A stretch of 24,684 bases of DNA from Dehalococcoidia bacterium (GCA_050123255.1 JASFHJ010000001.1:1-24684); one strand, 5' to 3'. Numbered from the stretch's first letter, positions 1 to 14,034 are shown. Translations and numbers: made by a program. Notes: generated from the sequence alone by a model not told the origin.

Positions 1-2
1 GC

Positions 3-296
3 GCGCATCCGTTCATTAATGCCGGCGAATGGATGAAATCGGTAGATGGCGTCAACCGCATGACGGAGAAGGACTCTACCGCTACTGTGACCACCGACGA
101 ATGGACGCTGCTCTATAACACCGAGCCGGGCATGTCCGAGCTTTATAACTTGAAGTCCGACCCTAGGCAGGAGAAGAACCTGATCAAGGAGCAGCCGGAC
201 AAGGCACACGAGTTACACCAGCTTTTGGTCGAATACATGCGGGAAACCAATCTGGCGGAGCATCTACTCCAGCCGAGACTGGAATTAAGATTATAG
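3..296 (+). CDS. Sulfatase-family protein, C-terminal fragment (5'-truncated by window edge)
   Basis: Frame is open from base 3 (AHPFINAGEW then MKSVDG...). ELYNLKSDPRQEKNL matches the ELYDLxxDPxExxNL tail typical of sulfatases. The catalytic N-terminus is not visible. Confidence 0.6.
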   Translation, partial: AHPFINAGEWMKSVDGVNRMTEKDSTATVTTDEWTLLYNTEPGMSELYNLKSDPRQEKNLIKEQPDKAHELHQLLVEYMRETNLAEHLLQPRLELRL

Positions 297-326: not shown

Positions 327-350
327 TTGCGTAATTGCGCAAATGAGGAA
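327..350. repeat. 8-bp-period array, copy 1 (TTGCGTAA TTGCGCAA ATGAGGAA)
   Basis: Contains the exact 13-mer CGTAATTGCGCAA (330-342), also present at 1626-1638 and 10517-10529. Confidence 0.85.
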
Positions 351-437
351 GTTGTTGGCTGCGTCGGGAAGGAGCATAATTGATAATTACCGCGGGGAAT
401 TGCTAATATAAAGAAACTTTTATTGAAGGAGTATACT

Positions 438-1100
438 ATGGACGTTGAAAAATTGGAAGCAAGGGTTAAGTATCTTGAAGACAGGCTGCAAAAGGTCGAT
501 GATATTGAGGCGATAAAGAAACTCCAGAGGGCCTACGGATATTATCTGGAGCACTGGTGCGTCGAGGATATACTGAGCCTGTTTTCCCAGAGCCCCGAGG
601 TGGTGGTAAAAGTGCATGCAGGCGAGTTCCGTGGATGGAAGAGTGTCAGAAGATTCTTCCTCCACGGCAAAGAAGATATCGATCCCAGTACGGTAAAACA
701 TCCTCCGACATTCCTACACCAGGTGATGCAGCTTTCCCCCATCATCGATGTTGCTCCCGATGGCAAACGGGCCTGGGGAAGGTGGTATGGGTTCGGGGCC
801 AACGCTATGGACGTTCCGGGAGGCGGCATCGCCCCGGGATGGATGGACGGCGTTTATGAAAACGAATATATCAAAGAGGACGGCGTGTGGAAGTTTTTGA
901 AGTTCTACTGGTACATGTTCTTCCACGCTCCTTACACGCTGAGCTGGGTGGATCCTGAAAAACGGATCGATCTCCAGATGGAGCCGGACTTCAGCTCTTT
1001 AAGTCCGGACGGCCCCTCCGACGATACTTTCTACCCGTCCGGTTTCCAGGCACCGTTTCATTATCCCAATCCCGTTACGGGTAAGGAATACAAGAAGTAA
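438..1100 (+). CDS. SnoaL-like / NTF2-family protein (LinA/BaiE-type fold)
   Basis: AAGGAG at 426-431 precedes ATG 438, preferred over TTG 423. Motifs DIEAIKKLQRAYGYYL, IIDVAPDGKRAWGRW and GVYENEYIKEDGVWKF are typical of SnoaL_4 proteins. Confidence 0.8.
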   Translation: MDVEKLEARVKYLEDRLQKVDDIEAIKKLQRAYGYYLEHWCVEDILSLFSQSPEVVVKVHAGEFRGWKSVRRFFLHGKEDIDPSTVKHPPTFLHQVMQLSPIIDVAPDGKRAWGRWYGFGANAMDVPGGGIAPGWMDGVYENEYIKEDGVWKFLKFYWYMFFHAPYTLSWVDPEKRIDLQMEPDFSSLSPDGPSDDTFYPSGFQAPFHYPNPVTGKEYKK

Positions 1101-1171
1101 TTCGATACTGCCGCCTGTAAGACCGGTAAAGAACTGCTTCTTATCCCCGGCGTGACCGGTATACCCCATGT

Positions 1172-1212
1172 TTCCCCCTCTCCTGACGAGGCGTTCCGCA
1201 GGAGAGGGGGAA
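1172..1212. terminator. Perfect 14-bp stem hairpin (terminator or REP-like palindrome)
   Basis: TTCCCCCTCTCCTG (1172-1185) and CAGGAGAGGGGGAA (1199-1212) with a 13-nt loop, followed by GTGTTTTTT. Confidence 0.7.
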
Positions 1213-1310
1213 GTGTTTTTTAGAGATGCGCCAGCCCCTCTACGCAGGCTACTCCCTAGAACGCTGGGTGGGAATAGATATATAAAGTAGGGGTGGGGTA
1301 AATTGGTAAA

Positions 1311-1339
1311 TTGACAATTTTCGAATAAGAGACTAAATT
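1311..1339 (+). promoter_or_regulatory. Sigma70-type promoter for the zinc-finger gene
   Basis: TTGACA (1311-1316), 17 nt, TAAATT (1334-1339). GGAGG SD at 1362-1366 before ATG 1376. Confidence 0.65.
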
Positions 1340-1375
1340 GTTGATATGTTTATGTAAGGTTGGAGGTGGATCATA

Positions 1376-1588
1376 ATGGCTCATCAAGAAAGGTGCTTGA
1401 GTTGTAATGGTCATGGGTATTACATCTGTAAACGTTGTGATGGCAAAGGTAAAGTGAAATTACCTCCACGACCTTTCGCCGTTATGTTTGGACCATACTC
1501 TGAAGAGTGCGATGATTGCGGGGGCAGTGGGAAACTAATATGTGAAATTTGTGAAGGCACAGGTATTATTATTGTTTCTGATTCCTAA
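1376..1588 (+). CDS. Stand-alone DnaJ-type cysteine-rich zinc-finger protein (4x CxxCxGxG), 70 aa
   Basis: Motifs CLSCNGHG, CKRCDGKG, CDDCGGSG and CEICEGTG. Has its own promoter, SD and downstream hairpin. Confidence 0.8.
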   Translation: MAHQERCLSCNGHGYYICKRCDGKGKVKLPPRPFAVMFGPYSEECDDCGGSGKLICEICEGTGIIIVSDS

Positions 1589-1593
1589 AGGAT

Positions 1594-1614
1594 GAGGGGG
1601 CATTTCGCCCCCTC
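1594..1614. terminator. Hairpin between the convergent zinc-finger gene and dnaK (likely bidirectional terminator)
   Basis: GAGGGGGC-ATTTC-GCCCCCTC, followed by TTT and preceded by AAAG. Confidence 0.7.
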
Positions 1615-1622
1615 TTTAGTAT

Positions 1623-1646
1623 ATACGTAATTGCGCAAGTGCGCAG
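1623..1646. repeat. 8-bp-period array, copy 2 (ATACGTAA TTGCGCAA GTGCGCAG)
   Basis: Exact CGTAATTGCGCAA at 1626-1638, just past the dnaK stop codon. Confidence 0.85.
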
Positions 1647-1649
1647 ATG

Positions 1650-3560
1650 CTACACTTCCCTGAATTCACCCTCTACGGTGCCTTCGTCATCGTCGCTCTT
1701 GGGTTCCTCTCCGCCTTCGGGTGGTGGAGGGGGTGCTTCTCCGCCCGGCGGTGGCTGCTGTGCCTGGTAGACCGCCTGGCCTATCTTCTGCATCGTCTCG
1801 TTGAGCTCTTCGGTGGCTTTCTTGATGGCGTCGGTATCGTCACCGTTTAAAGTGTTCTTCAACGCTGTTATTTTCTCCTCGGCTTCGGTGTTCAGGTCCA
1901 CCGGTACTTTGTCTTTATTATCGCGTAAGAGCTTCTCAGCCTGGTAAGCCAGCGAGTCGCCCATGTTCTTGGCTTCAATTTCCTCGCGGCGCTTGGTATC
2001 CTCGGAAGCGTGCACTTCCGCCTCTTTCTGCATCTTATCAACTTCTTCCTTGGAAAGTCCGCTGGAGGCCGTGATGGTTATTTTCTGCTCCTTGCCGGTG
2101 CCCTTGTCCTGGGCCCTGACGTTCAATATGCCGTTGGCGTCGATATCGAAGGTGACTTCAATTTGGGGCATGCCCCGCGGCGCGGGCAGAATACCGTCGA
2201 GCATGAACCTGCCGAGGGTGCGGTTGTCGGCCGCCATGGGACGCTCGCCCTGGAGCACGTGGATTTCCACGCTCGGCTGGTTGTCCGCCGCCGTCGAGAA
2301 TATCTGGCTCTTGGCGGTAGGAATGGTGGTATTACGCGGGATAAGCGGGGTGGCCACGCCGCCGAGTGTCTCGATGCCCAGCGTCAGCGGGGTAACATCG
2401 AGCAGCAGTACGTCCTTGACATCACCCTTGAGTACGCCGGCCTGGATGGCGGCGCCGATAGCGACCACTTCGTCGGGATTGACGCCCTTGTGGGGCTCCT
2501 TCCCGAAGTATTCCTGTACTTTCTTCTGTACCAGCGGCATGCGTGTCTGGCCGCCTACCAGGATTACTTCGTCAATCTGGGCGGCTGTTTTCTCAGCGTC
2601 GGTAAGGGCCTGTTTGCACGGTTCTATCGTCTTATCTACCAGGTCCATTACCAGCTGCTCCAGCTTGGAGCGTGACAGCGTGATATTCAGGTGCTTGGGG
2701 CCGCTGGCGTCGGCCGTCACGAACGGCAGATTGACCTCGGTCTGCTGGACGGTGGAAAGCTCCGTCTTGGCTTTCTCGGCGGCTTCCTTGAGTCGCTGTA
2801 AAGCCATCTTGTCCTGGCTGAGGTCGATTCCCTGGTCCTTCTTGAACTCCTCGCAGAGCCATTCAATAATGCGCTGATCGAAGTCGTCGCCGCCCAGGTG
2901 CGTATCGCCGTTGGTCGACTCTACTTTAAAGGTACCTTCGCCGAGTTCCAGGATGGAAATATCGAAAGTGCCGCCGCCGAGATCGTATACGGCGATGGTC
3001 TCGTCGTTCTTTTTATCCAGTCCGTAAGCCAGCGAGGCTGCCGTGGGCTCGTTGACGATGCGTAATACTTCCAGACCGGCAATCTTGCCGGCATCCTTGG
3101 TCGCCTGGCGCTGGCTGTCGTTAAAATACGCCGGTACGGTTATGACAGCTTCGGAGACCTTCTCGCCGAGATAAGCCTCGGCGTCCATCTTGAGTTTCTG
3201 CAGAATCATCGCCGAAATCTCCGGCGGACTGTATTCCTTGTCCCCCATTTTTACGTTGGCGTCGCCGTTGGCTGCCTTGGTTATCTGGTAGGGGAGTAGT
3301 TTTCTATCGATTTCGGCGCTGGGTTCATCGTATTTACGTCCCATCAACCGCTTAATACTGAAAATCGTGTTATCGGGATTGGTCACGGCCTGCCGCTTGG
3401 CGACCTGCCCTACCAGGCGTTCGCCGGCTTTGTTAACCGCTACTATCGACGGCGTGGTGCGCCCGCCCTCGGCATTGGGAATTATTACCGGTTCGCCAGC
3501 TTCCATGACGGCTACCGCCGAGTTGGTTGTTCCCAGGTCTATTCCGATTACTTTTGCCAT
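1650..3560 (-). CDS. dnaK: Molecular chaperone DnaK (Hsp70), 636 aa
   Basis: Motifs [25 protein letters not shown] and [16 protein letters not shown] at 3575-3570 precedes ATG 3560 (MAKVIG), so the ORF-track start at 3593 is too early. Confidence 0.99.
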
Positions 3561-3561
3561 G

Positions 3562-4110
3562 TTAGTTTTCCTCCTTTGCTTCCTCTTCTCCATTGCCGAC
3601 GACTACCTTAGCCGGGCGTATCACTCTCTCGCCCATCATGTAGCCGCGCTGGAATTCGTCTAAAATAATGCCCTCTTCGCCTTTATCCTGCCGGAGGGCT
3701 TCGTGAATATTAGGGTCGAAGACCTCACCCACCGATATCATGGGTATCACGCCCTGTCCCTGTAGAATGGTCTTGAATTTTTGTTCAACCAGCTTGATTC
3801 CTTCTCCCCATTCGCTCCCGGCTATCTTGTCCGGCATCGCTTCGATAGCCCTTTCCAGGTCGTCGAGGACCGGCAATATGTTGAGAATCAGGCTGGTATT
3901 GGCGTAGCTGTTGAACTCGCTCCGCTCCTGCTCGACCCGGCGTTTATAGTTGATAAAGTCGGCCTGAGCCCGTTGCCAGCTTGCCAGGTATTCGGCGGCT
4001 TTCTGCTTCTCCGCCTCAAGTTGCTCTTCGAGGTTGCCGGAGCCGCCTATTTCTTCCGATTCGTTCTCGGGTTCGATATTCTCATTTTCCTGTGGATCTT
4101 TTGGTATCAT
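3562..4110 (-). CDS. grpE: Nucleotide exchange factor GrpE
   Basis: Motifs [31 protein letters not shown] and [16 protein letters not shown]. Lies between hrcA and dnaK. Confidence 0.97.
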
Positions 4111-4125
4111 AGTTCGGTATCCGCT

Positions 4126-5169
4126 TTAGCTGTCTTGTTCTTCCGGGCTGATATCCCTGCCGTACAGGCTGGCTACCAGCTGACTCAACACCGAGGAAAG
4201 GTAGTGCACGGTGGGAATCGTGCGTGAATACTGCATCCGAGTCGGTCCCACCACTCCGATGGTACCGGTAGCTTCTTCCGGGAGTCCGTACCGGCACAGG
4301 ACGACGCTGCAATTCTGTATGGCTTTGTCCTTATTTTCTTTGCCGATGATGACGTGGACGCCTTCACGACTAAGTTCAGCCGGGAGTAATACTTTCAGCA
4401 GGCTGCGCTGTTCTGTCAGTTCCATAAGGGCGCTGACCTGGTCGCTGTGGGAAAATTCCGGCTGGTTGAACATGAAATGCCAGCCATCCAGGTAGGGATC
4501 GCCGTAGTCCTGCTGGTCTTCGGCTCGCATGATACTCACCAGGTGGTCGGTTATTTCTTTCTCAAGCTCGGATAACTCAATTTCTTTCTTCGATATCTGC
4601 CGCGCCGTAAGGTCGGCGTAAGCTGTGTTCAGCTTTTCACTGGTAACGGTCAGCGTCGATTGGCTGACGTTATCGCCGAAGGCAATCAGCTTCTGCCTGA
4701 CTTTAGCTCCGTGTAACACGATAACCGCCAGCGCCATCGATTCCTGCAGCGAGAGCAGTTCCAGGTGTTTCAGCTTGCCGTCCGTCGATTTGGGGAGGCT
4801 GACCACGGCCACGTTCTGTGCCAGCCGTGCCAGGAGTGTCGCCGAAAGGCTCAACCACGCTTCGATTTCCCTCTCCGCCTGGTGGAAGGTGTGACTTATT
4901 AAACGCTGCTCTTCCCGCGGCAGGGTCAGGGTATAGATGGACTCTACGTAGTGCCGGTAGCCTTTGTCCGATGGTACGCAACCGGCCGACGTATGCGGAC
5001 GGATAAGATACCCCTCCTGCTCAAGCTGCGCCATCTCGTTGCGGATTGTTGCCGGGCTAACGTCGAGCCCGGAGTGCTTCGCGATTACCTGCGAAGGCAC
5101 CGGTGCGGCCCGGACGATATATTCCCTGATGATGGTGTTCAGGATTTTTCCGCTTCTTTCAGTCAGCAT
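4126..5169 (-). CDS. hrcA: Heat-inducible transcription repressor HrcA
   Basis: Motifs SPATIRNEMAQLEQEGYL, PHTSAG, and C-terminal GTIGVVGPTRMQY. First gene of the hrcA-grpE-dnaK operon, with a CIRCE upstream. Confidence 0.97.
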   Translation of the reverse strand: MLTERSGKILNTIIREYIVRAAPVPSQVIAKHSGLDVSPATIRNEMAQLEQEGYLIRPHTSAGCVPSDKGYRHYVESIYTLTLPREEQRLISHTFHQAEREIEAWLSLSATLLARLAQNVAVVSLPKSTDGKLKHLELLSLQESMALAVIVLHGAKVRQKLIAFGDNVSQSTLTVTSEKLNTAYADLTARQISKKEIELSELEKEITDHLVSIMRAEDQQDYGDPYLDGWHFMFNQPEFSHSDQVSALMELTEQRSLLKVLLPAELSREGVHVIIGKENKDKAIQNCSVVLCRYGLPEEATGTIGVVGPTRMQYSRTIPTVHYLSSVLSQLVASLYGRDISPEEQDS

Positions 5170-5180
5170 TTTACACTCCG

Positions 5181-5207
5181 TTAGCAGTCTCCCCCTTAGA
5201 CTGCTAA
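5181..5207. promoter_or_regulatory. CIRCE element (HrcA operator), symmetric variant
   Basis: TTAGCAGTC-N9-GACTGCTAA, a perfect inverted repeat 11 nt upstream of the hrcA ATG. Consensus is TTAGCACTC-N9-GAGTGCTAA. Confidence 0.93.
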
Positions 5208-5212
5208 TTAAT

Positions 5213-5242
5213 AATTTAGCATTTTACGGTAGGCTTTGTCAA
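5213..5242 (-). promoter_or_regulatory. Promoter of the hrcA-grpE-dnaK operon
   Basis: On the minus strand: TTGACA, 18 nt, (TGC)TAAATT, directly upstream of the CIRCE. Confidence 0.6.
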
Positions 5243-5270
5243 GGGTATTTATATCATTTTTCACGCTTTC

Positions 5271-5299
5271 TTGACCGTCTATCACGGCTATGTTAAATT
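5271..5299 (+). promoter_or_regulatory. Promoter of the MBL hydrolase (probably leaderless)
   Basis: TTGACC, 17 nt, (TGT)TAAATT. The GTG start lies 7 nt after the -10 and there is no SD. Confidence 0.55.
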
Positions 5300-5305
5300 A
5301 ATAGT

Positions 5306-5938
5306 GTGGATATTACCTGGTTAGGTCATTCTTGCTTCCGGATCAAAGGCAGTCAGGCCGTTATTATCACCGATCCCTTTCCCCCGGATTTAGGCTATAC
5401 GCTGGGGAAGCAGACTGCCGATATCGTTACGGTCAGCCATCAGCACCCCTCTCACTCCTACGTGGAGGGTATCGGTGGCGAGTACCACGTGGTCAACGGT
5501 CCCGGGGAGTACGAAATCAGCGGTGTATTAATTATCGGGGTTGCCACCTTCCATGATACCCAGCGGGGACAGGTTCGGGGGAAGAACACGGCTTACGTGA
5601 TGGAAATCGATGGCATATCGGTCTGTCATCTGGGAGACCTCGGGCATGTTCCCACTTCCGAGCAACTGGAAGAGATGGGTAATATCGATATGCTGCTGCT
5701 GCCGGTGGGCGGGGGTTCGACGATTAGCGCCGCTATTTCCGCCGAGGTCATACGGCAGATCGAGCCCAATATCGTTATACCGATGCACTATAAAACGCCG
5801 GCAATCAAGCGCGACCTCGATACTGTTGATGTCTTTCTCAAAGAGATGGGAAGGGGACAGGTAGAGCCGCGCCCCAGGCTGAATGTGTCCAAGTCAAACC
5901 TACCGATCAGCACCGAGATAATCGTACTTACTGCCTGA
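5306..5938 (+). CDS. MBL-fold metallo-hydrolase (short, ~210 aa type)
   Basis: Motifs WLGHSCF, TDPF, SHQHPSH (HxHxDH with D to S), HLGDLGH, LPVGG and IPMHY. Confidence 0.88.
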   Translation: MDITWLGHSCFRIKGSQAVIITDPFPPDLGYTLGKQTADIVTVSHQHPSHSYVEGIGGEYHVVNGPGEYEISGVLIIGVATFHDTQRGQVRGKNTAYVMEIDGISVCHLGDLGHVPTSEQLEEMGNIDMLLLPVGGGSTISAAISAEVIRQIEPNIVIPMHYKTPAIKRDLDTVDVFLKEMGRGQVEPRPRLNVSKSNLPISTEIIVLTA

Positions 5939-5967
5939 TACCGTTAACCGTTTCAACGTGTTCTCGG

Positions 5968-6699
5968 TTATCCCTCCAAAAACTCCCGCAGGTGTTTATT
6001 GAATTCGTTAACCGTGCGCCCGTGCGGGGCATGACCGAATCCCGGTATCACCGTCAGGCGCGCATCGGGTATCATTTCAGCCGCCTGTCGAGCAACAGAC
6101 AACGGTATGTAAAGGTCGTGGCGTTTCCAGATTAACAGCGTGGGGACCTTCAATTCCGGAAGTTTCTCTACGCACGCCCAGTCAGGATCGTCTCCCTCGC
6201 TTGCCAGGAAGTTGGGGTAGGGTTGGCGAATACGAAACAGCTTTCGGATTATCCAGAATCCCGTCAGGATAGCGGTGCCGAACCGTGATACTTTACCCAG
6301 ACCGGCTGCGTCCGCCAGTACCAGCTTCTTTACTCTTTCGGGATGAGCAAGAGCTATCTCCAGAACGAGCCTGCCGCCGAATGAATGACCCACCAGGAAA
6401 GAATCTTCCAGGCCGATAGCATCCATGAATCCCCGGATAAAATCTCCGAACTCGGAAAGGTAATAACCTTCGCGGTTCCTCTCGTTACGCCCGAACCCTA
6501 ATAAGTCCGGCGCATAAAGAGTGAAGCTGTCCGAGAGGGACTTCATCGTCTCCAGCCAGTCCCGGGAATCGCTGGCGCCGCCGTGCAGTAACAGGACCGG
6601 CGGTCCCGTGCCCGATTTCAGATAATGCGCCCGGTAACCGTTGATACCGGTTTCCAGGGATTCGATAGCGGATTCAGTTTCCGGAATCGTCTTTGCCAC
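5968..6699 (-). CDS. Alpha/beta hydrolase
   Basis: Motifs LLLHGG, APDLLGFG, nucleophile elbow GHSFGG and C-terminal GHAPH. GTG 6699 with GAGG 9 nt upstream is preferred over 6756. Confidence 0.88.
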   Translation of the reverse strand: MAKTIPETESAIESLETGINGYRAHYLKSGTGPPVLLLHGGASDSRDWLETMKSLSDSFTLYAPDLLGFGRNERNREGYYLSEFGDFIRGFMDAIGLEDSFLVGHSFGGRLVLEIALAHPERVKKLVLADAAGLGKVSRFGTAILTGFWIIRKLFRIRQPYPNFLASEGDDPDWACVEKLPELKVPTLLIWKRHDLYIPLSVARQAAEMIPDARLTVIPGFGHAPHGRTVNEFNKHLREFLEG

Positions 6700-7594
6700 C
6701 TGATAAAACCTCGTATTTGATGAAATTAATGAACTCTTCCAGTAAGCGGGATACAATTCTCTCCGCGCGGTATACGCAGTAAAAATCGCGTCTCAGGTTC
6801 AGTCCGGTCACGTTAACCTGCTTTACCAGTCCCAGCGTCAGACTCTTCTTGATTGCCAGATTGGAAACGAAAGCTATTCCGGCGCCGTCTTCCACCGCAG
6901 CGATTACCGCCTGGGTCGTCCCCAGGACCAGATTGGGCGTAAGTTTCCGAGCCTCAAAGCCGATACCCGATAAATGCTCCTCCAGGTTACGCTGTGTGCC
7001 GGATGTTTCCTCGCGGAAGATAACCGGCTGGTTCTCCAGTTCCGCCGGCATAATCTCGGTTCGCTGTGCCAGCGGATGCCCGGGAGGTACAATGAGGACG
7101 ATACTGTCTTCAGCTACTTTGAACACGGTTAACTCATGGCCTTCCGGGGCAATGCCGCAGAAGCCCACCTCGTACCGGTTTTCACGTGTGCCGTCGATGA
7201 CCGCCAGGGAATCCGAAACGTCTACCTGGACCTTGACGGTCGGGTGGAGTCGTTTGAACGAAGCCAGCCAGTGGGGGAGAAGAAACTCGCCGGGGATTGT
7301 GCTGGCTGCTACCAGGAGTTCCCCCGTTACGACCTCCCGTATCTGTTCTAGGTCGTACTGAAGCTGTTTGCGTTCGCTTTCGATTTGTTCCGCAAAGCGG
7401 AGAAGTCGCTTTCCGGCGGCGGTCAGGGCGATATTTCTCTGAGAGCGGTCGATTAGTCTTATGCCAAGTTCCTGTTCCAGCTTCTGTATCTGGAACGATA
7501 CGGCCGGCTGGGTTATCGTCAGCTTCCTGGCGACCTCCGAAAAGCTGCCCAGCCTGACTACTTCCATAAAAGTTATTAATTGCTCCAGGTTCAA
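6674..7594 (-). CDS. LysR-family transcriptional regulator (selenium-metabolism-associated context)
   Basis: N-terminal HTH GSFSEVARKLTITQPAVSFQIQKLEQELG and a LysR substrate-binding domain. TTG start. Divergent from yedF-selD. Confidence 0.92.
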   Translation of the reverse strand: MNLEQLITFMEVVRLGSFSEVARKLTITQPAVSFQIQKLEQELGIRLIDRSQRNIALTAAGKRLLRFAEQIESERKQLQYDLEQIREVVTGELLVAASTIPGEFLLPHWLASFKRLHPTVKVQVDVSDSLAVIDGTRENRYEVGFCGIAPEGHELTVFKVAEDSIVLIVPPGHPLAQRTEIMPAELENQPVIFREETSGTQRNLEEHLSGIGFEARKLTPNLVLGTTQAVIAAVEDGAGIAFVSNLAIKKSLTLGLVKQVNVTGLNLRRDFYCVYRAERIVSRLLEEFINFIKYEVLSGGKDDSGN

Positions 7595-7606
7595 TTAACT
7601 AATCCT

Positions 7607-7621
7607 ATAAATAATATTTAT
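7607..7621. promoter_or_regulatory. Putative LysR box (T-N11-A)
   Basis: ATAAAT-AAT-ATTTAT dyad with T7608 and A7620, between lysR and the yedF promoter. Confidence 0.55.
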
Positions 7622-7622
7622 G

Positions 7623-7651
7623 TTGCGTACAGAAAAATCTTATGTTATACT
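7623..7651 (+). promoter_or_regulatory. Promoter for yedF-selD
   Basis: TTGCGT, 17 nt, (TGT)TATACT. Confidence 0.55.
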
Positions 7652-7729
7652 CTCCTGGAATTATTTTAGATTATTGGAGTTAATTCATCAAGGAACAATA
7701 TTCCCGAGTCTTTTCGAAGGAGTTATACT

Positions 7730-8065
7730 ATGGAACCTAAAGTGATATTAATACAATCCGAGGTATTGGGCCGGGGTGACGACGAGCTTGGGATGAACCT
7801 CATGTCCAACTTTTTACGCCTGCTCGAAGAGAGTGAAGAAAAGCCGGCGCGGATACTGTTTTTGAATTCCGGCGTGCGCCTGGTGTGCGAGGGTTCCTGG
7901 GCGCTGGAGCACTTGAAAACGCTGGAAGCTGGCGGCATCGAGATACTGGCCTGCGGCACCTGCCTCGACTTCTTCGAACTCACCGACCGACTGGCGGTCG
8001 GCAAGCCGACCAATATGGTGGCGACCATTAACTCCTTGATGACCAGCCAGATGGTTTGTCTCTAG
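7730..8065 (+). CDS. yedF: YedF-like sulfurtransferase-like selenium metabolism protein (DsrE-type domain only)
   Basis: Motifs LGRGDDELGxxLMxNF, FLNSGV and ACGTCLDFF. AAGGAG SD. Directly upstream of selD. No N-terminal TusA-like domain. Confidence 0.75.
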   Translation: MEPKVILIQSEVLGRGDDELGMNLMSNFLRLLEESEEKPARILFLNSGVRLVCEGSWALEHLKTLEAGGIEILACGTCLDFFELTDRLAVGKPTNMVATINSLMTSQMVCL

Positions 8066-8122
8066 TTTACTTACTGGAACTTGCCTATTTATCGTAGTAG
8101 AATAGCCCCAAGAGGAATTAAT

Positions 8123-9172
8123 ATGATTAATAAAGAGAACAAGCGTCTCACCGAGACGGTTCATGGCTCGGGTTGAGCTTGCAAGATAGGTCCGGGTGAC
8201 CTCGCCCAGGCGCTGGCCGGACTGCCCTTCCAGACCGACGAGAATTTGATAGCCGGAATGGAAAGAGCCGAGGATGCCGGCGTATACAAGCTTACGGACG
8301 AACTGGCAATCGTGCAGACGGTCGATTTCTTCACGCCGATCGTCGACGATCCCTACCAGTTCGGCGGAATCGCCGCGGCCAACTCCCTGAGCGACGTGTA
8401 CGCCATGGGCGGCAAGCCGTTGACGGCTTTAAATATCGTCTGTTTTCCCAATAGCGCTATGGAGCTTTCCGTCCTCACCGAGGTCCTCCGGGGCGGCCTG
8501 GACAAGATGCATGAGGCCGGGGTGATACTGGTCGGCGGGCATACCGTGGATGACCCGGAGTTGAAATACGGCCTGGCGGTCACGGGCACGATTCACCCGG
8601 AAAAAGTGGTTCGTAACAGCACCGCCCGGGATGGTGACAAACTGATCCTTACCAAGACCCTCGGTACGGGAATCATCAGTACCGCCATCAAAGCGGGAAA
8701 AGCTGATACGTCAACTATTGAGGCTATTACTCAATCGATGTCCGCTTTGAACAGAACGGCTTCCGAGTTGATGGTAGAGGTCGGTGTGAACGCCTGTACC
8801 GATATCACCGGTTTCGGCTTACTCGGTCATGCCGGTGAGATGATTGAGTGCAGTGACGTAGGGATGGTTATCGAAGCTGCCGCGTTGCCGTACTTTCCGG
8901 CGTTTAAGGAACTGGCGGAAGCGGGCATGATTCCCGGCGGACTGAACCGCAACCGTGATTATCGGAAGGATATGGTGGATATCGATTCAAGTGTTCCAAA
9001 ATTCCTTCAGGATCTCCTCTATGACCCGCAGACATCCGGCGGGTTGTTGATATCCGTGCCGGAAAAGAAGGCGCGGCGGTTACTGGACAGTTTACATAAT
9101 AATGGCATCGTTGCAGCGGTTATAATCGGCGAGGTTACGGCTGAAAATAAGGGCAGGATAATAGTAAAATAG
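8123..9172 (+). CDS. selD: Selenide, water dikinase SelD, selenocysteine-containing (UGA at 8174-8176), 349 aa
   Basis: ATG 8123 is in frame with ORF 8246 and reads MINKENKRLTETVHGSG-U-ACKIGPGDL, matching the G(U/C)xCK active site. Also TVDFFTPIVDDPY, AANSLSDVYAMGG, GGHT, TDITGFGLLGH and DPQTSGGLL. Confidence 0.96.
8188..8202 (+). promoter_or_regulatory. Bacterial SECIS hairpin of selD
   Basis: AGGTC-CGGGT-GACCT stem-loop beginning 11 nt after the UGA, with a G-rich apical loop. Confidence 0.75.
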
Positions 9173-9360
9173 GCTGTTATCATCAAAACTTCTGAATTTA
9201 CCCCGGAATAAACCACCTGGAACTATGTTCTATCCCCTCCCAGAGCCCCTGTAATCAAAATCTGCGTATATTATGGTGCTGAGATATGTCTCACTATGGT
9301 CAGGTCATAAACCGGCGCAGGATTATTATACTGGAGCTTTGCCGGTTAATGATATATAAC

Positions 9361-9714
9361 TTACTTCAACTGAGCGCTGGCTCTCCTGAATAACTCCTCG
9401 TCGTCCTTGACGCCCCGCACGTCTATGCCCGACTGCCGGAAAGCTCTTACCATCGCTTCTATCAGTTTCGTCTTGCTCAGCTTCTTCCCGCCGCTGAACT
9501 TGGCCGTGGAAGCCAGTGTCTCCAGGTAGGCATCCTCTTCGTGGTTGAGGAACACGGAAAGCTTTATCATGGATGACCTGGGTTTTTCCGGGGTTTTAGG
9601 CACCGGCTGCGGTTCCGGTGCTGCTTCCGGCGGCGGGACTGCTTTCCTGCCCCCGGTAAGACGGTCCAGAGCGGTACCGTAAGCGAGTTCCTCGGTGATT
9701 CTAGCTCTTTTCAT
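9361..9714 (-). CDS. Small ParA partner, predicted ribbon-helix-helix DNA-binding protein (ParG/omega-like)
   Basis: Overlaps the parA stop by 14 nt. Basic N-terminus MKRAR, Pro-rich linker, alternating strand IKLSVFL, then helices HEEDAYLETLAST and SKTKLIEAMVRAF. The fold is an inference. Confidence 0.6.
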   Translation of the reverse strand: MKRARITEELAYGTALDRLTGGRKAVPPPEAAPEPQPVPKTPEKPRSSMIKLSVFLNHEEDAYLETLASTAKFSGGKKLSKTKLIEAMVRAFRQSGIDVRGVKDDEELFRRASAQLK

Positions 9715-10486
9715 TCAGCACCTCTTCTGTGAATTCTCTATAAGCCGCCGCGCCGTCGGAGCCCGATGCGTAGGTGAGGATGGACATCCCGGCGGCGGGA
9801 GCCTCTTTAAATCGTACGCTGGTAGGTATGGTGGCATCGAAAACCCGGATAATGCTCCCGAAGGCGCGCTTGGTAACGTCGATGACTTCACGACTGTGCA
9901 GCGTGCGCGGGTTGGTCATGGTAAACAGGATGCCCAATATCTCCAGGTCGTGATTGAGCTTTTCCTTGACCTCGATAATCGTGTGCAGCAGTAGTTCGAG
10001 CCCTTTCATCGCCAGGAAGTCGGCCTGCAGCGGGATAAGCACCTTATCGGCGGCGGCCAGGGCGTTTATCGTCAACAAACCCAGGCTGGGCAGACAATCG
10101 ACGAGTATATAGTCGTATTCCTGACGTGCCGGTCGGAGCATTTCCTGGAGCATGAGTTCCCGTGATTCTATCTCCACCAGGTCGAGCTGTGACTGGGATA
10201 GCTCGATGTTGGAAGGAACGATGTCGATTGCGGGAAATTCGGTATGCAGAATGGCTTCCCGGATGGACGGTTTACCGGTATCGTACATGACGCCCCGCAG
10301 TACATCATAGCTGGTCAAATCGAGATTATCCGGGTTATAACCGAAATTTACCGTCAAACTACCCTGCGGATCCCAGTCAATGAGTAAAATCCGCTTGTTA
10401 TGCTCGCTGAGTCCCTGCGCCAGGGCGGCGGCGGTGGTTGTTTTCCCCACGCCGCCTTTTTGATTGGTAATGCAGATTATTGGCAT
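9701..10486 (-). CDS. parA: ParA/Soj-family ATPase
   Basis: Deviant Walker A NQKGGVGKTTT, plus IDWDPQGSLT, YDYILVDCLPSLG and RFKEAPAAG. Confidence 0.93.
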   Translation of the reverse strand: MPIICITNQKGGVGKTTTAAALAQGLSEHNKRILLIDWDPQGSLTVNFGYNPDNLDLTSYDVLRGVMYDTGKPSIREAILHTEFPAIDIVPSNIELSQSQLDLVEIESRELMLQEMLRPARQEYDYILVDCLPSLGLLTINALAAADKVLIPLQADFLAMKGLELLLHTIIEVKEKLNHDLEILGILFTMTNPRTLHSREVIDVTKRAFGSIIRVFDATIPTSVRFKEAPAAGMSILTYASGSDGAAAYREFTEEVLNEKS

Positions 10487-10509
10487 CGCTTTCCTCTGTT
10501 TCCGCCGAG

Positions 10510-10538
10510 ATTATAGCGTAATTGCGCAACTGCGTCAA
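10510..10538 (-). promoter_or_regulatory. parA promoter
   Basis: On the minus strand: TTGACG (10538-10533), 17 nt, TATAAT (10515-10510). Confidence 0.75.
10514..10537. repeat. 8-bp-period array, copy 3 (TAGCGTAA TTGCGCAA CTGCGTCA), covering the parA promoter spacer
   Basis: Exact CGTAATTGCGCAA at 10517-10529. The array overlaps both promoter hexamers. Confidence 0.85.
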
Positions 10539-10657: not shown

Positions 10658-10686
10658 TTGACAAAATGAATATATGTCTTTATAAT
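10658..10686 (+). promoter_or_regulatory. Perfect-consensus sigma70 promoter of the DUF2089 operon
   Basis: TTGACA, 17 nt, TATAAT, with an A/T-tract UP-element-like region upstream. Confidence 0.85.
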
Positions 10687-10759: not shown

Positions 10760-11122
10760 ATGGTAAAAGAATGGCATGAATTAACCAGGATGACCCAGGG
10801 AAAGCCCATCACGGTAGAACGAGTTCGCCTCGTGGACAGTGACATTGCCATAGAAGGCAGTTTTTCCCTGCCACCGCTAGCCGGCCTTTCGGCGGAAGAC
10901 CAGATTTTCGTCATGGCTTTCGTCCGGGCTCACGGCTCGATCAAGGACATGGAAGAAATGTTCGGCATCAGCTATCCCACGGTGAAGAACCGTATCAACC
11001 GCATCGCCCAGCAGTTCAAGTTCGTTGAAATGGTCACACCTTCAAGGCAGGACGACGTTATAGATGAACTGGAACGGGGCGATATTTCCCCCGAGGAAGC
11101 TTTGAGGAGGTTACAACAATGA
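10760..11122 (+). CDS. DUF2089-family HTH protein
   Basis: LSAEDQIFVMAFVRAHGSIKDMEEMFGISYPTVKNRI, with a C-terminal SHOCT-like VIDELERGDISPEEALRRL. Confidence 0.8.
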   Translation: MVKEWHELTRMTQGKPITVERVRLVDSDIAIEGSFSLPPLAGLSAEDQIFVMAFVRAHGSIKDMEEMFGISYPTVKNRINRIAQQFKFVEMVTPSRQDDVIDELERGDISPEEALRRLQQ

Positions 11123-11397
11123 TTCGACCACCATTATTAATGCGCCTGAAAATCCGGAACCCGGAACACGATTTCGGACTATGGCTGCCGTTATTCCTGA
11201 TAATACCCGTCGCTCTGGTGGTGTTTATCATACTCTCGCCGCTGATACTGCTGGCAGTGATACTGTTCTGGCATAAGGGCTGGGGTAAGACAGCGTTACT
11301 GGCGCCCTGGGCCGCCTGGCGGGTTTTCTGCGCAACCCGCGGACTGAAAGTTGACGTGCAAAATCCCGGTGAATGCCTGCAGATTGCATTCGTATAA
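11119..11397 (+). CDS. Small membrane protein of the DUF2089 operon
   Basis: ATGA overlap with the upstream gene. Long hydrophobic segment LWLPLFLIIPVALVVFIILSPLILLAVILFW. Confidence 0.7.
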   Translation: MIRPPLLMRLKIRNPEHDFGLWLPLFLIIPVALVVFIILSPLILLAVILFWHKGWGKTALLAPWAAWRVFCATRGLKVDVQNPGECLQIAFV

Positions 11398-11418
11398 TCA
11401 ATAAAGGAGGATAAATCC

Positions 11419-11862
11419 ATGACTGAGAGCCAGAAAAAGATACTGGAAATGCTTGCCGAAAAGAAAATTAGCACTGATGAGGCATATAGATTACTGAACG
11501 CTCTTGATACCGGTGATTCAGGACCGAAAGCCTCATCCGGGGAAGGGACGGTTTCCGGAAAGAAAGCCAAATATCTCCGGGTTACCGTTACGCCCGATCC
11601 GGATAATCCCAATCCGGAACACGCCGACCGCGTTAACGTACGGGTGCCGATGAACCTGATTCGCGCCGGCATCAAACTGACATCGCTCATTCCCGGCGAA
11701 GCCACCGATAAGGTTAACGAGGCGCTGAAGGATAAGGGTATAAACTTCGACGTCCGGAATGTCAAGCCTGAAGACCTGGAAGAGTTGATACTTGCCCTGG
11801 CCGATCTGGAGGTCGATGTTTCCAGTAGCCACGGTGAAAAAGTCAAAGTATTCGTTGAATAA
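11419..11862 (+). CDS. Protein with N-terminal SHOCT-like (YvlB/LiaX-type) domain
   Basis: AAGGAGG SD. KKILEMLAEKKISTDEAYRLLNAL, then KYLRVTV and VNVRVPMNLIRAG. Confidence 0.72.
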   Translation: MTESQKKILEMLAEKKISTDEAYRLLNALDTGDSGPKASSGEGTVSGKKAKYLRVTVTPDPDNPNPEHADRVNVRVPMNLIRAGIKLTSLIPGEATDKVNEALKDKGINFDVRNVKPEDLEELILALADLEVDVSSSHGEKVKVFVE

Positions 11863-12305: not shown

Positions 12306-13073
12306 TTACATCATCACGCTGCCGCCGTTGACGATGATGTACTGGCCGGTGATGAAATCGGAGTCATCGGAAGCTAAAAATACCGCGGTTCCCGCCAGGT
12401 CGTCGGGTTCTTCGCGGCGTTTTAGAGCCTGCATCTCCACCGTAGCATCGAATGATCCTGAACTGCCTTCCTGCCCCAGGCTGGCTTCGGTGGCTGTAAA
12501 TCCCGGGGCGATGCTGTTGACATTGATTCCGTCGGGGCCCAGCGCCCGGGCTAAAGTCTGGGTCATGGCGTAGACCGCCGCCTTGCTGCACGCGTAAGCC
12601 AGGAGATCTACCGCGCCCGCTACTTTGAAAACGTCCGAGGCGATATTGATTATCTTGCCCTTCCCCGCCTTCTGCATCAGCGGCCCGATTGCCCTGCAGC
12701 AGAGGTAGGTGCCCCGCACGTTGATTTCAAACATCCTGTCCCAGTCCTCCACTTTCCACTGGTCCCAGCGGCGTCGCTCGACTCCATAATATAGGGCGGC
12801 GTTATTAAGTAAAATATCCACTTTTCCGTAAATACGCATCACTTCTTCCGCCATTTTCCGGGTATCCGCTTCTTCGGAAATATCGGTTTTCACAGCGCAG
12901 GCTTCACCGCCTCTGGCTTTTATCTCCTCGGCGACGGCTCCGGCGCGTTCCGGGCTGATATCGGGGAGGAGTAATTTAGCTCCCTCATCGGCGAACCTCA
13001 GCGCGAAAACCTTGCCCAGTCCCCGCCCGGCTCCGGTGATGATGGCTACCTTGTCTTTGAGTACCGGTGACAT
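12306..13073 (-). CDS. Classical short-chain dehydrogenase/reductase (probably NAD-dependent)
   Basis: Motifs TGAGRGLG, NNA, catalytic YACSK and NSIAPG. Asp at the end of beta2 (LPDIS). Confidence 0.92.
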   Translation of the reverse strand: MSPVLKDKVAIITGAGRGLGKVFALRFADEGAKLLLPDISPERAGAVAEEIKARGGEACAVKTDISEEADTRKMAEEVMRIYGKVDILLNNAALYYGVERRRWDQWKVEDWDRMFEINVRGTYLCCRAIGPLMQKAGKGKIINIASDVFKVAGAVDLLAYACSKAAVYAMTQTLARALGPDGINVNSIAPGFTATEASLGQEGSSGSFDATVEMQALKRREEPDDLAGTAVFLASDDSDFITGQYIIVNGGSVMM

Positions 13074-13122
13074 ATAAGCCTCCTATCGTTACGAATCATT
13101 GATATTATCCTGACTGGCAAAA

Positions 13123-13151
13123 ATTGTACATCGTAGCCCGGTCAACGTCAA
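13123..13151 (-). promoter_or_regulatory. SDR promoter
   Basis: On the minus strand: TTGACG, 17 nt, TACAAT. Confidence 0.6.
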
Positions 13152-13205
13152 TCACACATGATATTTTGAAATATATAAAGAGATATTCATAAAATACTAT
13201 ATGTC

Positions 13206-13234
13206 TTGCTAAAAGATACCCGTCGCCATATAAT
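13206..13234 (+). promoter_or_regulatory. ABC exporter operon promoter
   Basis: TTGCTA, 17 nt, TATAAT. Confidence 0.6.
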
Positions 13235-13284
13235 ATAGCGAAAATCTCCTCAAAACTATCTCAATAGAAAGCGGGGGAAAGGCT

Positions 13285-14034
13285 ATGGCTGAGGAATATC
13301 TGGTCGCCACCGACCTTCACAAGAGTTTTAATGATTTTAAAGCCGTCGACGGCGTGACGTTTTCCCTAGCAAAAGGCGAGATATTCGGACTGCTGGGGCC
13401 CAACGGCGCCGGCAAGACCACCACGATACGCATGCTCTCCACGGTTCTTCCCCCAGATAGCGGCGATATAGTCATCGGCGGTCATTCCCTTCACCAGGAT
13501 GCCGCGGCGGTCAGGGCTCTTATCGGTGTTTGCCCCCAGGACCTGGCGCTCTATGAAGAACTCTCCGCCTACGATAACATGGTGTTTTTCGGCAGGATGG
13601 ACGGATTGAATACCCAGGAAGCCCGTGCCCAGGCTATGGAGCACCTGAAACTGATGGGACTGGAAGACCGCGCCAAAGGTAAAGTGGCCAATTTCTCCGG
13701 CGGTATGAAGCGCCGTATCAACTTGGCGATATCCCTCATGGGCAGCCCGCAGCTGGTCTTCATGGACGAGCCCACCGTCGGCATCGATCCGCAGTCGCGG
13801 AACAATATCTACGAAACTATCGAAGGCTTGCGGGATAAAGGCATTACCATTCTCTATACCACCCACTACATGGAAGAAGCCGACCGGCTTTGCAGTCGGA
13901 TTGCTATCATGGATGCCGGCAAGATTATCGCCATGGATACCCCGCGTAATCTCAAGGCTCAAATCGGCGACCCGGACAAGGTTACTCTGGAAGATGTTTT
14001 CCTGAACCTGACCGGACGCAGCCTACGGGACTAG
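13285..14034 (+). CDS. ABC-2 type exporter ATP-binding protein (DrrA/LnrL-like)
   Basis: Walker A GPNGAGKTT, signature FSGGMKRR, Walker B FMDEPTVGID and H-loop TTHYMEEA. Confidence 0.95.
   Translation: MAEEYLVATDLHKSFNDFKAVDGVTFSLAKGEIFGLLGPNGAGKTTTIRMLSTVLPPDSGDIVIGGHSLHQDAAAVRALIGVCPQDLALYEELSAYDNMVFFGRMDGLNTQEARAQAMEHLKLMGLEDRAKGKVANFSGGMKRRINLAISLMGSPQLVFMDEPTVGIDPQSRNNIYETIEGLRDKGITILYTTHYMEEADRLCSRIAIMDAGKIIAMDTPRNLKAQIGDPDKVTLEDVFLNLTGRSLRD

Follow-up and report, generated by a model that had tools for sequence, protein, structure and literature searches.

How does a bacterial chromosome that carries a parA gene, and next to it no recognizable parB, designate the region on which ParA is to act? 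To our knowledge, ParA-driven segregation of bacterial chromosomes is thought to depend universally on ParB, a CTP-dependent clamp loaded at palindromic parS sites. The locus that raises this question lies in a stretch of 24,684 nucleotides (the window), which is the entire contig C1 of the metagenome-assembled genome (MAG) G000. The MAG (1.56 Mb in 254 contigs, 64% complete) represents an uncultured Dehalococcoidales bacterium, from an uncultured group related to the organohalide-respiring Dehalococcoides. In the window, parA is followed by a gene encoding a protein of 117 amino acids (aa), and three short arrays of 8-bp repeats are found, one of them in the parA promoter. We regard it as probable, with real room for doubt, that these arrays are part of an operator and centromere set of the ParG/parH kind located on a bacterial chromosome, a ribbon-helix-helix (RHH) protein and octamer arrays taking the place of ParB and parS. 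The basis is computational: the motif, which is conserved and restricted to the dnaA region, gene co-occurrence, fold prediction, the type of ParA and the fact that ParB was not found.

The 13-mer CGTAATTGCGCAA has exact matches at positions 330-342, 1626-1638 and 10517-10529, all on the + strand and all intergenic, just as a first-pass annotation of this DNA had reported. When up to two mismatches are allowed, 6 matches are obtained for 0.63 expected, a number not attained in any of 100 shuffles. As that annotation also proposed, the 13-mer is in each case the core of three phased 8-bp units, and the 8-bp register is intact throughout 328-351, 1624-1647 and 10515-10538. In each unit, a tetramer box (TGCG, with TGAG, TACG or AGCG as occasional variants) precedes an AT-rich 4-bp spacer, YAAN.

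The candidate operator is array 3 (10515..10538, + strand; AGCGTAAT TGCGCAAC TGCGTCAA; 28.8 bits). A promoter scan places the parA promoter on the - strand at 10510..10538 (read from 10538 to 10510), with TTGACG, a 17-nt spacer and TATAAT matched at 11 of 12 positions; array 3 therefore fills this spacer and overlaps the -35, where the annotation had already located it. The parA start lies 23 nt downstream of this near-consensus promoter. Array 2 (1624..1647, + strand; TACGTAAT TGCGCAAG TGCGCAGA; 28.9 bits) lies 2 nt past the dnaK stop codon (1650). Its position between convergent genes was rightly recognized; it is flanked by this stop codon and by a terminator hairpin (1594-1614) belonging to a 70-aa DnaJ-CXXC open reading frame (ORF). 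Array 1 (328..351, + strand; TGCGTAAT TGCGCAAA TGAGGAAG; 33.6 bits) is located between the 3' end of a sulfatase gene (296) and a SnoaL-domain gene (423/438). The latter has a weak promoter-like site, whose -35 is found about 30 bp downstream of the array. Rfam families have no match in the window, so that an RNA reading of the arrays is unsupported. The heat-shock operators HrcA/CIRCE and HspR/HAIR were also considered, given the adjoining hrcA-grpE-dnaK operon, and rejected: their motif differs, and the array is at the 3' end of this operon.

A count of three copies holds for the window but not for the genome. Relaxed patterns and a weight matrix identify eight arrays in the MAG, scoring 27-34 bits, while the next independent site scores 13 bits. 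Besides the three of contig C1, four are found on contig C3 (~1362, 3248, 8273 and 9515) and one on contig C2 (1249); C3 also holds a fourth exact copy of the 13-mer. This contig carries dnaA (12587-13924), gyrA, lysC, apgM, mazG, fmt and obg. The end of its reverse complement (rc) overlaps the start of C1 over 163 bp with 2 mismatches (window 1-163 versus G000:C3:1-163). The overlap falls inside one sulfatase gene, and the contig break within this gene probably reflects a split of the assembly at a strain-variable spot. When the contigs are arranged by synteny with G002:C64, a 38.9-kb contig of a congener, they read rc(C1)-C3-(gap of ~2.7 kb)-C2. Because overlap and synteny order the contigs in this way, the eight arrays occupy a single ~30-kb stretch, which reaches from the parA promoter, at -23 kb relative to dnaA, to about +6-7 kb. 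A binning artefact, in which C1-C3 would come from another organism, is ruled out because the GC content and tetranucleotide composition of these contigs are ordinary for the bin.

Two of the arrays outside the window deserve mention for their position. The one in front of lysC (C3:8273) abuts or overlaps a TATAAT, as at parA. The C2 array (G000:C2:1249-1268, L006) is intragenic: it falls within the part of a 416-aa ORF that specifies a methyltransferase domain, its translation being roughly LRNCA, and it recurs at the same place in the congeners G002 and G001. Intragenic sites also occur for parS.

These counts bear on the simplest alternative, that the repeats are chance matches or functionless relics of miniature inverted-repeat transposable elements (MITEs) or repetitive extragenic palindromic (REP) sequences. 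The repeats are indeed short and AT/GC-patterned, and their palindromic core TTGCGCAA occurs 12 times in the genome. The full arrays, however, are eight and not hundreds, all in one region; their flanks are unrelated to one another and suggest no common MITE or REP element; and, as seen above, shuffled sequences do not reproduce the count of matches. In addition, the arrays keep their positions from one genus to another although the flanks diverge, a reversed-pattern control is essentially empty, and no Rfam family is matched. The genome-wide and comparative scans thus effectively refute a MITE/REP origin, and we give this alternative a negligible probability.

Comparison with relatives included 24 genomes of the same family (f1) and 16 genomes from other families of the order. 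A strict 20-nt pattern is found in 17 of the 24 family genomes and in 0 of the 16 others, whereas the reversed pattern gives 1 match in 41 genomes. Wherever the contigs are long enough, all strict-pattern matches in relatives are on the contigs of dnaA and/or parA. For example, all matches on the 1.47-Mb contig of G042 are at 1,023-1,040 kb, a segment that includes dnaA (1,028 kb); the gene of the 117-aa protein (the partner gene) is at ~1,055 kb. A scan of the same genome with the position weight matrix yields 0 matches in 360 kb of evenly sampled background versus 21 in the 40 kb around dnaA. The same confinement to the dnaA region is seen in G043, on a 2.0-Mb contig, and in G044.

The array of the parA promoter spacer is present at 37 of 39 species loci, often with five phased units, and the flanks diverge on both sides; of the two exceptions, one has no parA Walker motif and the other no octamer in the upstream stretch. 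The co-occurrence of arrays with the parA-RHH pair, suggested as a check by the first-pass annotation, is found; the strict motif is missing from all 16 other-family genomes, 15 of which gave no match when searched with the RHH protein. A second array is seen in several relatives, where it encodes the final residues of the RHH protein (VIAQLR) with the stop codon and continues downstream (L023, L024, L026 and L027, ~1818-1843), so that the operon is bracketed by sites. In the present genome, the C-terminus of the partner reads ASAQLK (window 9361-9380) and this 3'-end array has been lost. The array past the dnaK stop codon is kept at the same position in G001, G002 and G004 and is conserved in two genera, the sequence beyond the terminator being different.

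These positions can also be read in a purely regulatory sense. The RHH protein would then be only a local transcription factor, which autorepresses parA and regulates neighbouring genes (lysC, apgM, the radical-SAM gene and the SnoaL gene), ParA acting otherwise or without a DNA-bound adaptor. Most arrays are intergenic and upstream of genes, those of parA and lysC abut or overlap a TATAAT, and homologues of the RHH domain devoid of the N-terminal tail described below are stand-alone small regulators away from ParA. By contrast, the array at the 3' end of dnaK, conserved in two genera, lies between convergent genes, and the one within the methyltransferase coding region is conserved in three genomes. 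A regulon limited to ~30 kb around dnaA would be odd in genomes of 1.5-3.6 Mb. Furthermore, a plain repressor needs neither an invariant N-terminal tail nor translational coupling to ParA. We consider the purely regulatory explanation rather unlikely, and prefer a combined operator and centromere role.

The partner gene (9361..9714, - strand) overlaps the parA stop codon by 14 nt. In its 117-aa product, a Pro-rich linker separates a tail (residues 1-22) from an RHH-like core (~50-100), and an additional helix (105-116) lies at the C-terminal end. Alignment of the family shows that the basic tail, which begins with MKR, is nearly invariant over residues 1-22, whereas the linker is variable; the core, made of a strand (~50-56) and two helices and followed by the further helix, is almost invariant. 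AlphaFold2 gives residues 50-117 a pLDDT >90 and leaves residues 1-50 disordered. Pfam has no match, RHH families included, for this protein or for its distant homologues. In an exhaustive comparison of the model with known structures, most of the top 50 matches are RHH proteins aligned over residues 47-100 (Z 3.4-4.7), among them TraM, PutA, ParD, NikR, CopA, AmrZ, omega, ParG, Arc and antitoxins. The partner is thus likely an RHH-fold protein according to this monomer model, in which the helix-helix part is resolved.

Within the family, 23 of the 24 genomes carry the gene. It also occurs in one more family of the order, whereas searches of 15 others and of 200 additional genomes of the class did not find it. 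About 1,550 homologues, all unnamed, occur in MAGs of Dehalococcoidales and Chloroflexota. Clustering at 50% gives essentially one cluster of full-length partners, accompanied by distant relatives that share the C-terminal domain alone. Two of the distant homologues that possess the tail are encoded beside a ParA. P0138 (111 aa), from an unrelated assembly, directly follows a ParA gene, and arrays of 8-bp period with a different unit, CATATAAT, lie on either side of its operon (Tandem Repeats Finder; L077:823-852, 1098-1144 and 2302-2348). P0142 follows a ParA gene whose promoter holds TTCTC-N4-GAGAA repeats. The tail-less homologues, in contrast, are not adjacent to ParA. Therefore, the tail goes with ParA, and the different repeat units of these distant ParA-RHH operons indicate that the repeat sequence changes with the protein. 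The invariant tail is the presumed contact with ParA; a predicted complex of a ParA dimer, 2 ATP and partner residues 1-45 obtained a score of 0.01, which speaks neither for nor against binding.

The parA gene itself (9701..10486, - strand) encodes a 261-aa Soj-type ATPase with a deviant Walker A motif. An AAA_31/CbiA domain covers residues 2-236, with no N-terminal helix-turn-helix (HTH) domain and no extra domain, so the protein has the small Walker-type ParA build of type Ib partition systems. Its closest solved structures are those of chromosomal Soj/ParA proteins (E 1e-40 to 1e-57), ahead of the plasmid protein delta (E 4.5e-16) and of SegA (7dut, E 4e-15). By these similarities, the protein groups with chromosomal Soj and not with ParF or delta. 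The earlier proposal of a type Ib-like partition system is supported with a qualification: tandem boxes in the parA promoter and a partner modelled as RHH agree with it, while the ParA is not of the ParF/delta plasmid type. Nor is the location that of a plasmid or another extrachromosomal element, since the contigs are common with dnaA, gyrA, dnaK and obg and include contigs of 1.5-2 Mb in relatives. Given its Soj-type ParA, the system looks like a replacement of ParB rather than an integrated type Ib cassette.

Searches for the ParABS components point in the same direction. No match to ParB_N (PF02195) was obtained in the MAG, nor in 22 of the 24 family genomes, and the two matches in the remaining genomes are short ORFs on other contigs. 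The position following parA, where a ParB with ParB_N and HTH domains would adjoin it, is occupied by the 117-aa gene; in other parts of the class, parA and parB are commonly found side by side. As for the 16-bp palindromic parS, none is found near dnaA in the MAG: the only match has 2 mismatches, lies on an unrelated contig and equals the control count.

The ParAs most similar to this one come from two other Dehalococcoidia families (G079 and G076), both without a ParB_N match, and they are followed by overlapping ORFs of 104-108 aa (L086:485-799, - strand; L087:2240-2566, + strand). As in the partner, these small ORFs encode a basic N-terminal peptide and a strand-helix-helix core. Because such ORFs follow ParAs in genomes lacking a ParB_N match, sequence comparison suggests that the replacement of ParB could be wider than one family. 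As separate observations, the peptide of the L087 ORF reads KRGVEALF, reminiscent of the N-terminal motif of ParB, and the region upstream of the L086 locus is rich in TATA-type words.

Another possibility is that the arrays are bound by some other family-specific factor, an origin-domain organiser or a replication-related protein, the RHH protein having different specific sites or none. The protein-motif link is indirect, the arrays cluster around dnaA and not strictly around parA, and their polarity, described below, hints at a link with the direction of replication. Against this, an array is built into the parA-RHH promoter at nearly all species loci and into the 3' end of the partner gene in several relatives. 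Moreover, the sites of G045 and G041 stay with parA-RHH and not with dnaA, the distant ParA-RHH pair described above has its own flanking 8-bp arrays, and no other DNA-binding gene is consistently linked. We judge a different binding factor to be improbable.

The polarity of the arrays flips at dnaA, as seen on the scaffold rc(C1)-C3-C2 and in relatives (L028-L037). With a strand-call margin of at least 4 bits, the - strand carries 21 of the 24 arrays left of dnaA and the + strand 7 of the 10 right of it, many of these sites being orthologous so that the counts are not independent. The motif is directed away from dnaA on both sides, regardless of the orientation of the neighbouring gene (opposite for parA, same for lysC). 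This polarity could relate to the direction of replication.

Under the preferred reading, in which the RHH protein acts at the arrays as both operator and centromere, the 117-aa protein would bind them as tandem sites, with one dimer per 8-bp unit, the geometry of ParG sites. Neighbouring dimers would bind cooperatively, as those of ParG do on the TP228 sites, and coat the octamer arrays. At the parA promoter, such binding would shut off transcription of parA-RHH and lead to autoregulation. The other seven arrays, spread over ~30 kb on both sides of dnaA, would be dispersed centromere-like sites; some of them are at places without a promoter, in the dnaK 3' region and inside the methyltransferase gene. 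The basic N-terminal tail of the partner would tether the dnaA region to nucleoid-bound, Soj-type ParA-ATP, and may also stimulate ATP hydrolysis by ParA. Taken as a whole, the interpretation of the first-pass annotation is supported at the comparative level, binding, repression, stimulation of ParA and segregation being its predicted consequences.

Several points weigh against this reading. The link between protein and motif comes from co-occurrence, in essentially one clade whose members are not independent, plus one distant lineage. Binding, repression, ATPase activity and segregation are predictions drawn from comparison for an uncultured organism. The MAG is 64% complete, and a ParB could therefore have been missed in this genome. 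Several arrays are close to promoters, which keeps some probability for a purely regulatory role. The matches to RHH structures are weak in absolute terms; Foldseek against the PDB retrieves nothing at E <= 0.001, with RHH entries among the weak rows only; and a profile of the partner family against the sequences of solved structures gives only spurious matches, with no solved relative and no SegB. Owing to these Z values of 3.4-4.7 and to the absence of a significant Foldseek match, the RHH assignment is likely but not proven. In the more distant G045 and G041, the sites are beside parA-RHH but 60-250 kb from dnaA. Finally, the mapping relative to oriC called for in the first-pass annotation succeeded insofar as all arrays of the MAG are near dnaA, but attempts to locate oriC failed: on C3, matches to the DnaA box are no more frequent than expected by chance and form no cluster, and the GC skew of the 1.47-Mb G042 contig (20 samples of 20 kb, L091-L110) is noisy, with no clear switch. 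Origin-proximal therefore means dnaA-proximal here. It can be added that the GC skew of this contig (G042:C1) follows the local gene-strand bias, and that mapping origins in this Dehalococcoidales family will need methods other than GC skew.

Extending the proposal, we hold it to be just about probable that the whole Dehalococcoidales family, and by the look of the L086 and L087 loci other ParB-less Dehalococcoidia too, segregates its chromosome with a Soj-type ParA, an RHH adaptor unrelated to ParB and ~8-14 dispersed polar octamer arrays, which are confined to the dnaA region and whose orientation flips at dnaA.

Two neighbouring features of the window can be described in passing. The DnaJ-CXXC ORF (1376-1588, + strand), which is convergent with the hrcA-grpE-dnaK operon (1650-5169, - strand) and is equipped with a separate promoter-like site and terminator, encodes a free-standing 70-aa protein made up solely of a zinc-finger domain of the DnaJ-type CXXCXGXG kind. 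Divergent from parA, a sigma-70-type promoter matched at 12 of 12 positions (TTGACA-17-TATAAT, 10658-10686, + strand) serves a DUF2089 HTH gene and a SHOCT-like operon (10760-11862).

If the proposal is true, the system would be the first centromere system of a bacterial chromosome to be built on something other than ParB. It would mean that a ParA diffusion-ratchet working on a chromosome of 1.5-2.5 Mb needs no ParB spreading or sliding and no CTP, and that a bacterial chromosome has adopted centromeres in the style of plasmids or of archaeal SegAB. The system would also be minimal and easily reconstituted, with two small proteins and a 24-bp site, and it would provide an origin-region marker for a poorly understood uncultured group. 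A literature search found no paper describing an RHH partition system on a bacterial chromosome; according to reviews, chromosomal centromere-binding proteins are HTH ParBs (PMC5002424; PMC7022226).

Among the closest known systems, ParF-ParG of plasmid TP228 has a matching site geometry. Its OF operator and parH centromere consist of ACTC tetramer boxes with 4-bp AT-rich spacers; each box binds one ParG dimer, and both repression and partition make use of these repeats (PMC3130281). As in TP228, the locus described here has tetramer boxes and 4-bp AT-rich spacers with an 8-bp period, repeats at the operon promoter, and a small RHH-like partner with a flexible N-terminal tail whose gene comes directly after that of the ATPase. 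The short iterated repeats at the operon promoter that are typical of type Ib systems are thus present as a sequence feature, in the form of phased 8-bp units. However, the system is chromosomal and not plasmid-borne, its ATPase is Soj-type (261 aa) and not ParF, and its box is TGCG/TGAG instead of ACTC. The partner has no detectable sequence similarity to ParG, and the sites are about eight arrays of 3-5 units spread over ~30 kb, where TP228 has 20 boxes in a single block that precedes its operon.

Like the chromosomal ParABS systems (Soj-Spo0J/parS), the locus combines a Soj-type ParA with several centromere-like sites that cluster within tens of kb of dnaA, and its DNA-binding partner carries an N-terminal peptide presumed to contact ParA. 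It differs from them by its partner, a 117-aa RHH-like protein, no CTPase with ParB_N and HTH domains having been found, and by its sites, which are direct octamer repeats with polarity, no 16-bp parS palindrome having been found.

RHH dimers are known to bind tandem repeats cooperatively, as omega of pSM19035 does with 7-bp heptads and MetJ with 8-bp metboxes. The plasmid-borne omega is both a repressor and a centromere-binding protein, whereas MetJ is a pure repressor. The arrays resemble those of the delta-omega and MetJ/metbox systems in being short tandem repeats as candidate RHH sites; the partner, unlike them, is without sequence similarity to either protein, and omega is a weak structural match (Z 3.5).

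On chromosomes, the nearest precedents come from archaea. SegAB of Sulfolobus and HpaAB of Haloferax pHV3 are chromosomally encoded and associate a ParA-type ATPase with a small RHH centromere-binding partner (PMC8682754; PMC13722703). The Dehalococcoidales pair is likewise chromosomally encoded and made of a ParA-type ATPase and a small RHH-like partner. It is bacterial, whereas SegAB and HpaAB are archaeal; no sequence relation of the partner to SegB or HpaB was detected, neither SegA nor HpaA is close to this ParA, and the architecture of the sites differs.

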